This document shows, in pieces, positions 7,385 through 25,911 of a stretch of 64,000 bases of DNA (positions are counted from its first letter, which is position 1; each line of letters begins with the position of its first letter). Made by a program: the position numbers and the translations under genes. The stretch comes from Bacteroidales bacterium (GTDB lineage: Bacteria > Bacteroidota > Bacteroidia > Bacteroidales > WRLA01), in the NCBI GenBank assembly GCA_009777825.1, contig WRLA01000005.1, positions 9,286 through 73,285 of the forward strand, read 5' to 3'. The notes below the pieces were generated by a model, which was not told the origin of the DNA, searched no databases, and saw nothing but the letters and a program-made list of their open reading frames with translations.

Positions 7385-8071
7385 TTATCTTATCTCAAAA
7401 GTTTTCTGCCCCAGACAGAAACTTTTGTACCATACTTCTATCTTGTACCAGCCTGTGGGGTATTTGTTTTTTGCAGTTGTATTTTTCCAACATTCTTTAA
7501 ATTCTACCATGCCGTTGCCGGGTTTGATTTTTACTGTTTGGTTGGTACGTTCGTCCGGTTTGACAGAAAAGAGCGAAACGAATCTTCCGGGATAGTGAAT
7601 AATGATGTCGAACGGGATCTCTTTTTCTTCGTTCAACAGGCTGATATACTCAATTTTAAGTCGTAAGCGTTGCGCGTCGGTAAGAAATTTGCTGCTATAC
7701 GGATCGAGTTCCTTACACATATCATCAAAACCGCCTACTTGCATATTTTTTATAATTATAGGGTGTGTTTCTTGTATTTCTAATACGGCTTTCTCTAATT
7801 TGGAGTATGTTTCCAGTTTTTCGAAACATTCTTCGGTTTTTTTAAGATTTTCTTTGGCTTGCCCAAGTTCATTTTGGGCTTCCTGCAACTCTTTCTTTAC
7901 TATTTTTAAAGAATCCGTTTTGGTTTTTAAATCTGTTTTTAATTGGTCGGACGCATTAGATTTTATGGTAGTAGGGGAGGGGGGAGGCGTGATGGGATCT
8001 TCAACTCGTTGAGCCGATACGCTCATTATTAGCAACATCAGGCAGCCGAAAGTTAATACTTGCTTTTTCAT
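7385..8071 (-). CDS. secreted hypothetical protein (signal peptide, coiled-coil, beta-rich C-terminus); last gene of the T7SS-like operon
   Basis: N-terminus MKKQVLTFGCLMLLIMSVSAQ. Lies 31 nt downstream of the preceding kinase gene. Convergent with the VOC gene. Confidence 0.7.
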   Translation of the reverse strand: MKKQVLTFGCLMLLIMSVSAQRVEDPITPPPSPTTIKSNASDQLKTDLKTKTDSLKIVKKELQEAQNELGQAKENLKKTEECFEKLETYSKLEKAVLEIQETHPIIIKNMQVGGFDDMCKELDPYSSKFLTDAQRLRLKIEYISLLNEEKEIPFDIIIHYPGRFVSLFSVKPDERTNQTVKIKPGNGMVEFKECWKNTTAKNKYPTGWYKIEVWYKSFCLGQKTFEIR

Positions 8072-8102
8072 AAAAAAATCTATTTTGTTTTACTATATTT
8101 AT

Positions 8103-9689
8103 CTATTTTCTTTCAAAAACGCCATTTTTATAGGTTCCCTGTAATTTTCCGTTTTTCCAACGGTCTCCGTTATCCGGTCGTCCGTTTCTCCATGTTCCAC
8201 GATACATGGTGCTGTCTTTGTCGTTTTTTCTCCATTCGCCGAACACCGGTTGATCCTCTCGGTAACTGCCTGTAAATGTACTGCCGTCATCCTTAAAGGT
8301 ACGTTTGCAATCATTTCCGGATTTCAGTCCTTTTCTAAATCCCCCTTCATAAAAGGATTTATCTTTACCACAATGATAGTCTGCTTTTCCCTCAGTATCA
8401 TCGGGATAGCCTTTTTGCATGCGACCGGAATAGAGATAATAGGAACATTCGGTAGGGAGCGAATCCATTTTCAATAACGCGTCTAAATTATCAGGCAGGG
8501 AGTGGCTGACTTCTATGAGTATTGAATCGTTAATCGTTGTGTACCACATAGTTGTATCGAGTTCCCCCTGAGTGGGGCACAAATAGATATTTTCCTTATA
8601 TAAGCACACTTTCAATCCGTACACTCTTCCTCTGACCATGCTTCGTTTTGCATTTTCAATGACTTTGCTTTTTTTATCGTTTTTATCGCGGTTATGATAC
8701 CATTTCCATGTTATCAAGCCTCCTGCGAGCAGGATTACAACTCCGATAATAATGGCGATAATCCATTTTTTCGGGATTGTTCCTTTTTTGCCGGGAGCAG
8801 ATACTCTCCAATCTTTCAGTCCGGTGAGTGTAACCATTAGTTCTCCGACGTTCTGATAGCGTTCTTCCGGTTTTAATGCCATTGCTTTGAGTATGGTTTC
8901 GTTGGCGATGTCCGGCAGGTTGGAGGCAAGCGTTTTCGGCGCTTTCATCTCCTGGAGCAGCCGTGCGGCGGCGTCAAGGGGTTTTTTACCGGTAACGATG
9001 AAATAGAATACGGCGCCGAGAGAGTAAACATCGGAATAGAATCCTTTTTTCCCCACATTCGAGTATTGTTCTAACGGAGCATATCCTTTTGTTAAAATGG
9101 AGGTATGGCTTTGTGTTTTATCGTGGATAAATTCACGGGCGGAGCCGAAATCTATTAAGACGGCGGTATATTCCGGCGTGATCATGATGTTATCCGGCTT
9201 AACGTCGCGGTGAAGGATTCCTTGTTCGTGAATATGGTTGATGGCTTCGGCAATTTGCGCTACATAGTTCACGGATGTTTCGTAATCCAATTTTCCTTTT
9301 TTATCTACAAGTTTCTGTAATGTAATTCCTTCCACAAAGGGCATGACGATATAAGAGGTATCGTTTTCTTCAAAAACGTCTATTACCTTTACGATGTTGG
9401 GGTGTTTCAGTTTTGTTAAGGTTTGCGCTTCTTCTGTGAATTTGCGTTTATAATTGTCGTATTCTTCGTCGGTGATACCTTGCAGGTGCAGTTTGCTTGT
9501 TTGGGTGTTTCGCACGCAATAACCGCTTATAAAAAACTCCTTGATGGCATAATATTGATTCAAGGTAGCATGTTTGGCATAGTACGTGATACCAAATCCG
9601 CCCAAGCCCAGCACTTTTTCAATGATATATTTACCATTGTGCAAGGTTGTCCCTTTCGGCAGTTCCCGTGATTTGATCTCTTCGGTCAT
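8103..9689 (-). CDS. Hanks-type Ser/Thr protein kinase with one TM helix and C-terminal MORN-like repeats
   Basis: GLGGFGITYYAKH, YAIKEF, HRDVKPDNIM, DFGSAR, GYAPLEQ. TM WIIAIIIGVVILLAGGLITW. C-terminal Y-x-G-x-x-x-x-G repeats (YEGGFRKGLKSG.., YRGTWRNGRPDNG..). Confidence 0.9.
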   Translation of the reverse strand: MTEEIKSRELPKGTTLHNGKYIIEKVLGLGGFGITYYAKHATLNQYYAIKEFFISGYCVRNTQTSKLHLQGITDEEYDNYKRKFTEEAQTLTKLKHPNIVKVIDVFEENDTSYIVMPFVEGITLQKLVDKKGKLDYETSVNYVAQIAEAINHIHEQGILHRDVKPDNIMITPEYTAVLIDFGSAREFIHDKTQSHTSILTKGYAPLEQYSNVGKKGFYSDVYSLGAVFYFIVTGKKPLDAAARLLQEMKAPKTLASNLPDIANETILKAMALKPEERYQNVGELMVTLTGLKDWRVSAPGKKGTIPKKWIIAIIIGVVILLAGGLITWKWYHNRDKNDKKSKVIENAKRSMVRGRVYGLKVCLYKENIYLCPTQGELDTTMWYTTINDSILIEVSHSLPDNLDALLKMDSLPTECSYYLYSGRMQKGYPDDTEGKADYHCGKDKSFYEGGFRKGLKSGNDCKRTFKDDGSTFTGSYREDQPVFGEWRKNDKDSTMYRGTWRNGRPDNGDRWKNGKLQGTYKNGVFERK

Positions 9690-9714
9690 AATATAAGTTT
9701 TCTATTTATTGATA

Positions 9715-25175: not shown

Positions 25176-25207
25176 GGTTTGTATTTATCCGTTAAATCAT
25201 TATTTTG

Positions 25208-25834
25208 TCAAAAAGCGGTTTTAAATTTAAACATCGTTTCCCCCATCTTAATAATATCGCCGTCGTATAATTCAACTGTCTCTTCCTCAATATCTTTTTC
25301 ATTAACAAAGGTGCCGTGGGAAGAGAGTTCGTCTTTGATCTTATATTTATCTGCCCGAAACAAAATCGTGGCATGTCTTCTGGACATGGTTTTATCATTC
25401 ACCGTAATGTTGCAGTCAACGCCTTGTCCGATTTCGTTTCGTCCCTCATACAGTTTATAGTCAATCCCCAGCGGATCAATGGAAAAGGTAACCAACCAAC
25501 CCACTAATCGGCGATCGCTCCGACGCTCCTTTTTTACTACAACGCTGCCGCCTTCTGTCTCCTCTTCAAATTCATCCTCGAAAACGGTCTTATTGTTGGA
25601 AATCATGCTGACTTTACGATTCAAACTCTTTGGCTGATTCTTCTCGCCAACAATGATAGTCTTGTTGGAATCATCACCGTCAAACTCCGGAATAACTTGT
25701 GTCTTCATATTTCCGTCGCCCACAATGGTGGCGGTATTATTACCGGACGTGTTCCCTTTCCCTTGACAATGTGGGCATTGTGTCAAATCATCTTTGTAGA
25801 AGTGCCCCTTCGGACATTTTTTAAAACCTTTCAT
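25208..25834 (-). CDS. zinc-ribbon plus FHA domain protein
   Basis: N-terminus CPKGH-x11-CPHC. C-terminal FHA: IGQGVDCNITVNDKTMSRRHATILF...DELSSHGTFVNE...DGDIIKMGETMFKF. Confidence 0.85.
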   Translation of the reverse strand: MKGFKKCPKGHFYKDDLTQCPHCQGKGNTSGNNTATIVGDGNMKTQVIPEFDGDDSNKTIIVGEKNQPKSLNRKVSMISNNKTVFEDEFEEETEGGSVVVKKERRSDRRLVGWLVTFSIDPLGIDYKLYEGRNEIGQGVDCNITVNDKTMSRRHATILFRADKYKIKDELSSHGTFVNEKDIEEETVELYDGDIIKMGETMFKFKTAF

Positions 25835-25903
25835 AATCGCGTTTTTTTACCTTTCAATATCTATTTTATCTAATTTTATGTCTAATACATATATAATTGG
25901 GCG

Positions 25904-25911
25904 CAAATGTA
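25904..25911 (-). promoter_or_regulatory. -7 promoter box (TACATTTG on the minus strand), candidate promoter of the 17-gene operon
   Basis: caaatgta on the plus strand, 70 nt upstream of the ATG at 25834. This is the only intergenic gap over 50 nt at the head of the cluster. Confidence 0.45.

Follow-up and report, generated by a model that had tools for sequence, protein, structure and literature searches.

The 64,000-nucleotide stretch of DNA analyzed here (the window) belongs to contig WRLA01000005.1 of an uncultured, gut-type Bacteroidales metagenome-assembled genome (MAG) and carries a locus of 17 open reading frames (ORFs; g1 to g17 in the order of transcription, Table 1), all located on the minus strand and spanning positions 7385-25834. 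Sequence comparison provides solid grounds to relate the core of this locus, i.e., an ATPase of the EssC family, the WXG100 proteins and an N-terminal carrier of polymorphic type, to type VII secretion systems (T7SS, ESX/Ess), and the locus is, on the same grounds, a real, conserved, T7SS-derived system, the Bacteroidales variant of a type of system that was predicted by others on computational grounds. From g1 to g17 the genes are separated by 32, -1, 12, 6, 43, 30, 4, 20, 9, 10, 1, -4, 8, 14, 25, and 31 nt, with overlaps at two junctions, 1 nt at g2/g3 and 4 nt at g12/g13, and the stop of g17 at 7385 faces a plus-strand gene of the glyoxalase family that ends at 7370. The first-pass annotation, made by a model from the sequence without database searches, had described the same 17 tightly spaced minus-strand ORFs with a convergent stop at 7385, and was right in this as well as in its domain calls, which Pfam and NCBIfam scans reproduced. 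Identical proteins are on deposit as 'MAG: Bacteroidales bacterium' under FWG84 locus tags.

Table 1. Genes and candidate promoter of the locus, in window coordinates (TM, transmembrane segment; aa, amino acids).
Feature	Description	Position	Strand	Evidence
TACATTTG	candidate Bacteroidota -7 promoter box	25904..25911	-	69 nt upstream of g1 ATG
g1	soluble Zn-ribbon-like (CxxGH...CPxC) and FHA protein, 208 aa	25208..25834	-	Pfam FHA 1e-17
g2	EssC/EccC-family FtsK/SpoIIIE ATPase, 923 aa	22404..25175	-	Pfam FtsK_SpoIIIE 9e-26
g3	218 aa, highly charged C-terminus	21748..22404	-	no Pfam match
g4	candidate effector: W-x-D WXG100-like N-module, Gly/Ala-rich linker, 190-aa C-terminal domain	20779..21735	-	NCBIfam WXG100 0.0024
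g5	same N-module, Gly/Ala-rich linker, ~290-aa Gly/Ser/Thr/Asn/Lys-rich amphipathic beta-repeat domain	19153..20772	-	sequence, repeat, amphipathicity
g6	free-standing WXG100-like protein, 90 aa, paralogue type 1	18837..19109	-	module alignment, family profile
g7	free-standing WXG100-like protein, 87 aa, paralogue type 2	18543..18806	-	family profile, AlphaFold2, Foldseek
g8	163-aa helical protein, short form of a domain adjoining the WXG gene across phyla	18047..18538	-	jackhmmer
g9	72-aa helical protein with W-Q-D-E-V turn motif	17808..18026	-	alignment; WXG100 protein weakly matched by profile
g10	signal peptide, ~300-aa periplasmic VWA-like domain, TM 332-350, coiled coil, cytoplasmic FHA domain	16251..17798	-	Pfam FHA 9e-19
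g11	PP2C phosphatase, TM 279-297, short periplasmic tail	15026..16240	-	Pfam PP2C_2 2.6e-15
g12	signal-peptide protein, 365 aa	13927..15024	-	conserved in four further loci of Bacteroidales
g13	Ser/Thr kinase, FHA domain, C-terminal TM 402-420	12665..13930	-	Pkinase 1e-54, FHA 4e-18
g14	Ser/Thr kinase, TM 301-319, ~200-aa periplasmic domain	11070..12656	-	Pkinase 2e-44
g15	signal peptide, TPR-like N-domain, Pro-rich linker, OMP_b-brl_2 barrel; membership uncertain	9715..11055	-	Pfam 8.5e-13
g16	second paralogous Ser/Thr kinase, TM 309-327, ~200-aa periplasmic repeat domain; membership uncertain	8103..9689	-	Pkinase 2e-42
g17	signal-peptide protein, 228 aa; membership uncertain	7385..8071	-	no homologue found

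The length and the profile alignment of the ATPase g2 imply three P-loop-like domains, only the central of which contains a Walker pair (GRPGYGKT as Walker A, residue 390, and LVIIDE as Walker B, residue 497), versus three Walker A motifs in the EssC examples compared. Its best NCBIfam matches are EssC (1.6e-32), EccCa (1.7e-22), and EccCb (3e-18); since the score is far under the equivalog cut-off (112 bits vs 778), g2 should be regarded as a distant member of the EccC/EssC clade and not as an orthologue. The PDB sequence matches are exclusively T7SS ATPases (4nh0, 5.5e-18; YukB of B. subtilis, 1.6e-15; EccC5, 1.9e-14; EccCb1, 5fv0, and 4lya), FtsK, TrwB, VirD4, and HerA being absent among them. 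Of these entries, 4nh0 is deposited under the title 'Cell division FtsK/SpoIIIE', and we take it to be EccC of T. curvata, while 5fv0 and 4lya, titled EccC and 'Uncharacterized protein', are presumably EssC of Geobacillus. The g2 family profile is collinear with EssC residues 495-882, i.e., the end of D0 and D1 (4e-46), with a weaker match over D2, and outside the family of g2 the nearest database proteins with a source name are EssC of Bacillota. Metagenome bins of Bacteroidales, assigned to Azobacteroides, Prevotellaceae, Muribaculaceae, and Alistipes, contain about 100 full-length homologues, 40-98% identical. Sequence evidence that g2 is an EssC/EccC-family, hexameric-type ATPase is therefore solid, and the earlier placement of the protein with EccC/EssC rather than with FtsK, TraB, or VirD4 is upheld by NCBIfam, PDB, and profile alignment alike.

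The second component of the core is a helical module of about 90 residues. When aligned, g6, g7, and the ~90 N-terminal residues of g4 and g5 show a mean column identity of 73%. At the DNA level the module appears as a 299-nt direct repeat in three copies, located in g5, g4 (86%), and g7 (66%), g6 being a more divergent copy (34%), and the N-terminal modules of g4 and g5 are 83% identical as proteins, in accordance with the first-pass description of a near-identical module that heads two large proteins and also exists in free-standing copies. A word-index search with g7 gave only the identical protein, and it took an exhaustive profile search to collect 272 module representatives, both free-standing proteins of ~90 aa and fusions of 250-460 aa. 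The profile of 90 free-standing members matched HP0062 of H. pylori (3fx7/2gts, 1.6e-16), EsxB of B. anthracis (4j42, 1.5e-11), and EsxA of S. aureus (3e-11), as well as WXG100 proteins of group B streptococci; Pfam WXG100 was matched by 80 of the 90 members, g7 alone reaching only 0.073 against PF06013. In the turn, the motif W-x-D replaces W-x-G. The AlphaFold2 model of g7, built on the family alignment, has a predicted local distance difference test score (pLDDT) of 92.4 and consists of helix 8-38, turn 39-43 with W41-x-D43, and helix 44-86, and its top 32 Foldseek matches in PDB are all Esx/WXG100 structures, HP0062 among them with a TM-score of 0.86-0.89 and a root-mean-square deviation of 1.4 Å. 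Because profile matches, model, and Foldseek matches agree, g6, g7, and the N-terminal parts of g4 and g5 can be predicted, on solid grounds, to be hairpins of the WXG100 superfamily, of the HP0062 subgroup and in W-x-D form; helical hairpins are what the first-pass annotation had expected of the small proteins.

The gene set recurs in other Bacteroidales, as had been anticipated. Orthologues follow one another in the same order as in the window in L003 (Alistipes sp. UBA934; g1-g3, WXG proteins, g8-g14), L083 (Muribaculaceae-type; g1-g3, WXG proteins, g8-g12), L084 (Bacteroidales; g1-g3, WXG proteins, g8-g14), L087 (Candidatus Azobacteroides; g1-g15), and L090 (Bacteroidales; the first ten genes, then the contig end), with a few extra genes in the last two, while the cargo genes between g3 and g6 vary from locus to locus. 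Orthologues of g6 are present in the first four of these loci and of g14 in L003, L084, and L087. The g1 gene has homologues in all five and in L004, and lies directly upstream of the ATPase gene in every Bacteroidales locus examined. Homologues of g3 were found only in Bacteroidales loci, right after the ATPase in L003, L004, L083, and L084 and one gene later in L087; in L090 a 217-aa gene occupies this place, which is a positional match only. As the start of g3 overlaps the stop of g2, its product is probably a partner of the ATPase. An orthologue of g15 occupies the same position in L087 (3e-73), the other contigs ending earlier, and a metagenome scan with g15 found the same organism only, so that conservation of g15-g17 is attested by L087 alone. 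In addition to g2 and its homologues, a second family of ATPases free of TM helices, ~30% identical and 843-962 aa long, occurs in Muribaculaceae and Prevotella (L005, L006, L014, and L085). The neighborhood in L085 differs, including MORN-repeat proteins, an FtsK_gamma-domain protein, and small proteins of 94-95 aa, and this family may represent a separate type of system.

Outside Bacteroidota, a genome scan returned 558 relatives, the best 80 of which are mostly from Planctomycetota and include at least one Chloroflexi genome. In about 70 of the 77 Planctomycetota and Chloroflexota loci the order is a WXG gene (90 aa), a g8-like gene, a g9-like gene (~70 aa), and the ATPase gene, these four being the only gene families conserved there. 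Their long ATPases possess N-terminal TM segments in 65 of 69 cases and a single Walker A motif in 67 of 69. In two Planctomycete/Gemmata loci a Ser/Thr kinase is fused to the ATPase (L037:7166-12451, 1761 aa; L040:7472-12454, 1660 aa); the fused kinase domains resemble those of g13, g14, and g16 (E 1e-28 to 1e-31), which links kinase signaling to this ATPase family independently. By a jackhmmer search, g8 has a single counterpart in each of 72 loci, always in the corresponding position. Profile searches with the g8 family gave no Pfam or PDB match beyond coiled-coil noise, and the idea of an LXG-like domain in g8 was dropped on this account. Long forms of g8 bear variable C-termini, an Imm33-like domain or a weak Lipase_3 match. 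In Planctomycetota, the long forms at L015:7195-8259, L070:7029-8210, L018:7213-8346, and L076:4872-5963 end in a Pfam Imm33-like domain (best 1.4e-14), which is of immunity and not of toxin type. The g9 gene is kept between the g8-like gene and the ATPase gene in both phyla, and its product is probably a shortened relative of WXG100 proteins, judging by its turn motif.

As for the cargo, a constant N-terminal carrier followed by variable toxin C-termini is, at the level of sequence, a solid case of a polymorphic toxin arrangement. In the module-headed relatives a Gly/Ala-rich hydrophobic linker leads to mutually unrelated C-terminal domains, so that the reuse of the module at the N-termini of variable effectors, claimed earlier for this locus, is borne out by the diversity of the 272 representatives. 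Pfam matches of the fusion C-termini are weak but consistent with one another and include NlpC/P60 (22-22.6 bits, cut-off 23), CHAP and Amidase_6 (weak, sub-cut-off), Phage_lysozyme (25 bits, cut-off 22.3), DUF6782/SprT-like HExxH (best 1.7e-5), and Lipase_3 (1.5e-4). The profile of a four-member subgroup matched PDB entry 4hz9 (Tae3) at 7.4e-17, and the Cys and His aligned to the Tae3 dyad are invariant; 4HZ9 is the type VI secretion (T6SS) amidase effector Tae3 from Ralstonia pickettii, with the catalytic dyad C23/H81 (PMC11796386). One Tae3-like protein, P0126, is encoded at the g4 position of L090, where the order is FHA gene, ATPase gene, the 217-aa gene, and P0126. The length of g8 varies with the number of fusions: in the window, L087, and L090, which have at least two fusions with a WXG head, it is short (163, 152, and 175 aa, respectively), and it reaches 627-814 aa in loci with one or none (L003, L083, and L084), and it seems that an effector domain is able to ride on either carrier, the WXG head or g8.

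The two fusions of the window itself are candidate effectors. A single-sequence AlphaFold2 model of g4 (pLDDT 52) contains the hairpin (helix 8-35, helix 42-83) and a C-terminus of low confidence, and the homologue search returned relatives of the N-module only, none of the C-terminal domain. A motif-level guess that this domain is a LAS-type (VanY-like) zinc peptidase was unverified and was dropped. In g5, residues 205-490 show a period-2 amphipathicity (z=5.7) comparable with that of the g15 barrel (z=4.6), the controls ranging from about -1.6 to +1.9. Beta-rich paralogues akin to g5 are P0124, P0130, P0132, P0156, and P0274, with the C-terminal tail of g5 conserved in P0130; by its sequence, g5 could be a pore-forming or membrane-inserting effector. 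Among the sister loci, L087 bears accessory inserts, namely genes for a 319-aa signal-peptide repeat protein (3908-4867), a 113-aa protein (9041-9382), and a 157-aa protein (9537-10010), the last with a hydrophobic segment at its N-terminus, and L090 bears one for a 102-aa cytoplasmic protein (6573-6881). These accessory genes could be immunity or chaperone genes.

The distal half of the locus encodes envelope and phosphorylation proteins. The N-terminal domain of g10 has a VWA-like strand pattern without the metal ion-dependent adhesion site motif (DxSxS); its L083 orthologue has a weak precomputed match to PF00092, and a profile search of PDB with this domain found nothing. Among the three FHA domains the phosphothreonine-binding residues are canonical in g10 (GR, SxxH, NG), while Arg is replaced by Gln in g1 and Ser by Gly in g13. 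The kinase domains of g14 and g16 are close paralogues and their periplasmic C-termini are unrelated, by eye TPR-like in g14 and Gly/Trp-rich, MORN-like in g16, which suggests two different sensed signals.

In comparison with the known T7SS, the locus shares an EssC/EccC-family multi-P-loop ATPase with paired WXG100 hairpins of ~90 aa, and larger effectors that combine a helical N-terminal targeting domain with variable toxin C-termini and are accompanied by extra small helical partners (cf. LXG toxins and Lap/WXG). Ser/Thr kinases, PPM phosphatases, and FHA domains make it similar to subtypes T7SSc-j, the clusters of which often include kinases and PPM phosphatases along with FHA proteins encoded separately; the survey of these subtypes (Garrett et al., 2024) found T7SS in Bacillota and Actinomycetota only (PMC11217815). 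Unlike the T7SS, g2 has neither TM helices nor an FHA domain of its own and comprises three P-loop domains instead of four, one of them with Walker motifs; the turn is W-x-D; homologues of EssA/EssB/EsaA/EsaB or EccB/D/E/MycP are lacking in the locus; the host possesses an outer membrane; and the effectors use the whole WXG100 module with a Gly/Ala-rich segment rather than an LXG domain.

There is also a Gram-negative precedent, established by comparative genomics, which the first-pass annotation overlooked. Anantharaman (2012), as cited in two later papers (PMC4978471, PMC11090510), is the source for WXG plus FtsK/EssC-like cassettes in Gram-negatives, often with the VWA-PP2C-kinase triad TerY-P. 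Uchiyama et al. (2016) described a 'WXG100 secretion system' HP0062/HP0066 of H. pylori and a TerY-P island encoding WxG and FtsK (PMC4978471). According to Bell et al. (2024), EssC-like ATPases without TM helices, with three P-loop domains of which the central one is active, are encoded beside two WXG100 genes, are flanked by VWA genes, and have a link to the VWA-PP2C-kinase triad; these authors consider it likely that the mechanism differs from secretion of the classical kind (PMC11090510). Our literature search retrieved no description of such a system in Bacteroidota or Planctomycetota, nor of the four-gene cassettes of Planctomycetota and Chloroflexota.

With HP0062/HP0066 and the TerY-P/CoCoNuT cassettes the locus has in common the WXG100 subfamily (HP0062, 1.6e-16) and an ATPase of ~820-930 aa, free of TM helices and with the central P-loop alone active; the order of g10 (VWA-like), g11 (PP2C), and g13 (kinase) also corresponds to TerY-P/CoCoNuT, with g12 inserted between phosphatase and kinase. 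Our WXG profile matched a Caballeronia plasmid locus (7e-29) and a Helicobacter plasmid locus (3e-23), and the ATPase profile matched them at 3e-110 and 5e-86, respectively. The former encodes VWA, WXG100, three further genes, FtsK, CARF, VWA, PP2C, kinase, and AAA proteins, the latter a WXG protein, an HNH nuclease, SMI1/KNR4, a small gene, and an FtsK ATPase. SMI1/KNR4 (SUKH) proteins are immunity proteins of polymorphic-toxin systems, and one following an HNH nuclease would make a toxin-immunity arrangement. Profile comparison could not demonstrate that g8 and g9 are homologous to genes two and four of these two cassettes. The differences are as follows. The locus encodes VWA-like, PP2C, and kinase proteins that are anchored in the membrane, has its VWA-like domain in the periplasm, and adds three FHA domains, while the TerY-P triad is cytoplasmic and its kinase carries a C-terminal zinc ribbon in place of the FHA domain and TM segment of g13; the McrBC, HEPN, and helicase defense genes of CoCoNuT are lacking in the window; the cargo of the relatives of the locus consists of cell-wall and lipid hydrolases on WXG heads, not of nucleases; and the Bacteroidales-specific g1, g3, g12, and g15 are added. 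The cassettes of Planctomycetota and Chloroflexota are similar in that all four proteins are homologous, the g7-g8-g9 order is the same, and the ATPase has a single Walker A motif, and different in that this ATPase is ~1300 aa long with an N-terminal TM segment (65 of 69 long forms), carries a fused kinase in two cases, and is encoded downstream of the small genes, with no conserved FHA, PP2C, or VWA gene nearby.

In T6SS, secretion is gated post-translationally by threonine phosphorylation (PpkA, PppA, Fha1), i.e., by an FHA protein together with a PP2C phosphatase and a Ser/Thr kinase that sits in the membrane and has a periplasmic domain. By analogy, the kinase/PP2C/FHA set of the locus and the cargo classes of its relatives (Tae3-like amidase, lysozyme, lipase) resemble that system; TssB/C, Hcp, VgrG, and baseplate genes are lacking, and beyond the Tae3-like domain the analogy is functional only.

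Based on these data, we suppose, with a probability slightly better than even (about 0.55), that the locus is a diverged relative of the T7SS which exports toxins from the cytoplasm, phosphorylation of threonine acting as the switch that turns it on. Export is suggested by homology, by the periplasm-acting cargo of relatives, and by the membrane-anchored, ancestor-like forms of the ATPase; the regulation is proposed from gene content and by analogy with the threonine phosphorylation of T6SS and with the genes of T7SSc-j. The membrane kinases g13, g14, and g16 would sense an envelope signal, g14 and g16 through their periplasmic domains, to which the periplasmic VWA-like domain of g10 may add, and would phosphorylate a threonine on a membrane component. 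FHA domains, of canonical binding residues in g10 and variant ones in g1 and g13, would bind the phosphothreonine and thereby dock the soluble g2-g3 at the inner membrane, onto bitopic membrane proteins. The ATPase would then recognize helical bundles, i.e., the g6/g7 pair (with g9) and the WXG-type heads of g4 and g5, and drive them across the inner membrane, the phosphatase g11 resetting the switch. Candidates for the route through the outer membrane would be g15 or the beta-rich domain of g5. The sequences of the relatives make it most likely that the cargo is antibacterial, comprising cell-wall amidases and lysozymes, metallopeptidases, a lipase, and pore-like beta proteins.

A number of observations weigh against this reading. 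No hydrophobic segment above threshold, and hence no TM helix, was found in g2, or in the ATPases of L003, L004, L005, L006, and L014; none of the 17 genes encodes a polytopic membrane protein, so that no translocation channel can be named; and EssA, EssB, EsaA, EsaB/YukD, EccB/D/E, and MycP have no Pfam match in the 17 proteins and no NCBIfam match in the ten proteins scanned (g1-g9 and g12). The adaptation to a two-membrane envelope that the first-pass annotation asserted is, considering all this, a conjecture, and g15 is a small OMP_b-brl_2-type barrel, seen only here and in one close relative. The C-terminus of g4 has no Pfam match, no PDB match by phmmer, and only noise by Foldseek, and the searches assign no activity to the C-terminus of either g4 or g5; the hydrolase labels derive from relatives, for most of which the Pfam scores lie just under the gathering cut-off. 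Neither in the window nor in L090 does a signal-peptide immunity gene stand beside the toxin genes: the gaps between g4 and g5 (6 nt) and between g5 and g6 (43 nt) leave no room for a downstream immunity gene in the manner of polymorphic toxins, and the neighbor of the L090 toxin gene encodes only the 102-aa cytoplasmic protein. Moreover, all carriers found are uncultured MAGs, the Proteobacterial relatives sit within predicted anti-phage loci, and directly upstream of the FHA-ATPase system of L084 there is a Gabija-like pair (AAA_15/OLD-TOPRIM, 681 aa, and UvrD helicase, 642 aa). Together with SLFN_AlbA_2 and a metallophosphatase-like gene this pair occupies L084:2397-9145, which looks like a defense-island context.

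As there is no identifiable channel, there are no immunity genes, and the relatives have links to defense loci, a model of self-lysis or abortive infection stays alive, though we hold it unlikely. In this model a TerY-P-like switch activates the EssC-like ATPase in response to phage or stress, and the WXG-headed lytic proteins lyse the producer, with no delivery to other cells and no need of an outer-membrane conduit. The closest described TM-less relatives are indeed embedded in CoCoNuT/TerY-P defense operons, for which a non-classical mechanism was suggested (PMC11090510), the Caballeronia plasmid locus combines its WXG100 and FtsK genes with CARF, AAA, and the triad, the order of g10, g11, and g13 mirrors VWA, PP2C, and kinase, and to this the neighbors of the L084 system and the missing periplasmic immunity gene can be added. 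However, the flanks of the locus in the window are housekeeping and not a defense island, PADLOC gave only generic kinase, PP2C, and FtsK/HerA-type matches with no defense-system assignment, and the highly polymorphic cell-wall, lipid, and nuclease cargo is a signature of interbacterial toxins. The Helicobacter relative, with its SMI1/KNR4 gene right after the HNH nuclease, the membrane anchoring and periplasmic sensor domains of the triad, as opposed to the cytoplasmic TerY-P, and the stand-alone four-gene Planctomycete cassettes with a membrane ATPase speak against self-lysis as well. Very improbable, in our opinion, is an envelope remodeling or signaling machine, in which the WXG-headed hydrolases would act on the peptidoglycan or outer membrane of the cell itself (growth, vesicles, surface structures) and play no toxin role. 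Three membrane kinases, the phosphatase, three FHA domains, periplasmic sensor domains, and the conserved envelope proteins g12 and g15 would suit it, as would the lack of immunity genes, and T7SSb is reported to recruit a dedicated cell-wall hydrolase, EssH, to enable effector secretion (PMC13059805). On the other hand, cargo that is hypervariable among close relatives alongside conserved machinery would be unexpected for housekeeping enzymes, the repertoire of Tae3-like, lysozyme, lipase, and HExxH domains mirrors known sets of antibacterial effectors, and the distribution is patchy, with a GC content lower than that of the flanks.

A system for DNA translocation or conjugative coupling (FtsK-, TraB-, or VirD4-like) residing on a mobile element, the helical proteins being unrelated to it, has practically no probability and was rejected. 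Although the Pfam domain of g2 is the generic FtsK_SpoIIIE and some distant homologues are plasmid-borne, every significant PDB and NCBIfam match is a T7SS ATPase, the linkage to WXG100 genes is tight over three phyla, and no FtsK gamma domain, relaxase, VirB4, or integrase was found between the housekeeping flanks. Domain scans matched no T6SS, T4SS (type IV secretion system), or relaxase family among the locus proteins, in line with the absence of T6SS, relaxase, and VirB4-type genes claimed before. Anyway, the small proteins model as hairpins, the ATPase groups apart from coupling proteins and translocases and lies in no conjugative element, and the genes stand together in other genomes, which are the three points on which the first-pass annotation had said it could fail. 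Within the export reading itself, the most specific version is distinctly doubtful: an interbacterial weapon of gut and termite-associated Bacteroidales, in which a soluble EssC-like motor would be recruited, when needed, to single-pass membrane proteins via FHA-phosphothreonine binding, WXG100-headed cargo would cross both membranes, and a self-exported WXG-headed beta-barrel of g5 type would form the pore, be it in the target cell or in the outer membrane.

In general, the literature treats type VII secretion as Gram-positive and mycobacterial, and the locus with its relatives gives a different picture: the EssC plus WXG100 core is widespread in diderms (Bacteroidota, Planctomycetota, Pseudomonadota, and Campylobacterota) and also occurs in Chloroflexota, and the Bacteroidales have expanded it into a large and conserved operon, predicted to be under phosphorylation control, the variable cargo of which resembles antibacterial cell-wall toxins. 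Should export take place, gut Bacteroidales would possess a pathway of antagonism beside T6SS, a T7SS-type motor would be seen to work without a membrane anchor of its own, and a tractable route to the question of the T7SS channel would be provided. The weapon version, if true, would mean that T7SS-type export exists, for the first time, in a classical lipopolysaccharide diderm and uses a channel of new architecture, while a role in self-lysis would tie the machinery of WXG100 and EssC to immunity against phages, as proposed in the work on CoCoNuT.

One more question concerns the origin and the expression of the locus. It is flanked by housekeeping genes: serine hydroxymethyltransferase, Sir2, RecX, and glyoxalase on the downstream side, and acyl-CoA dehydrogenase and electron transfer flavoprotein alpha and beta on the upstream side; domain scans and inspection of the flanks revealed no integrase, relaxase, or T4SS gene in the window. 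The GC content of the locus (8000-26000) is 0.37-0.47, versus 0.51-0.53 in the immediate housekeeping flanks, which fits horizontal acquisition, though no mobility gene is nearby. As to the promoter, the -7 box proposed earlier, TACATTTG, is indeed present at its place; however, its pattern TAnnTTTG is not enriched in the window (62 occurrences vs 53 expected), so that the box is consistent with a Bacteroidota promoter and is no evidence by itself. A scan for sigma-70 promoters and terminators was uninformative for a Bacteroidota genome. In the same 520-nt intergenic region upstream of g1, just 3' of the stop codon of the acyl-CoA dehydrogenase gene, the minus strand contains a short tandem repeat of the ATCGCA(T/C) type (26265-26300).

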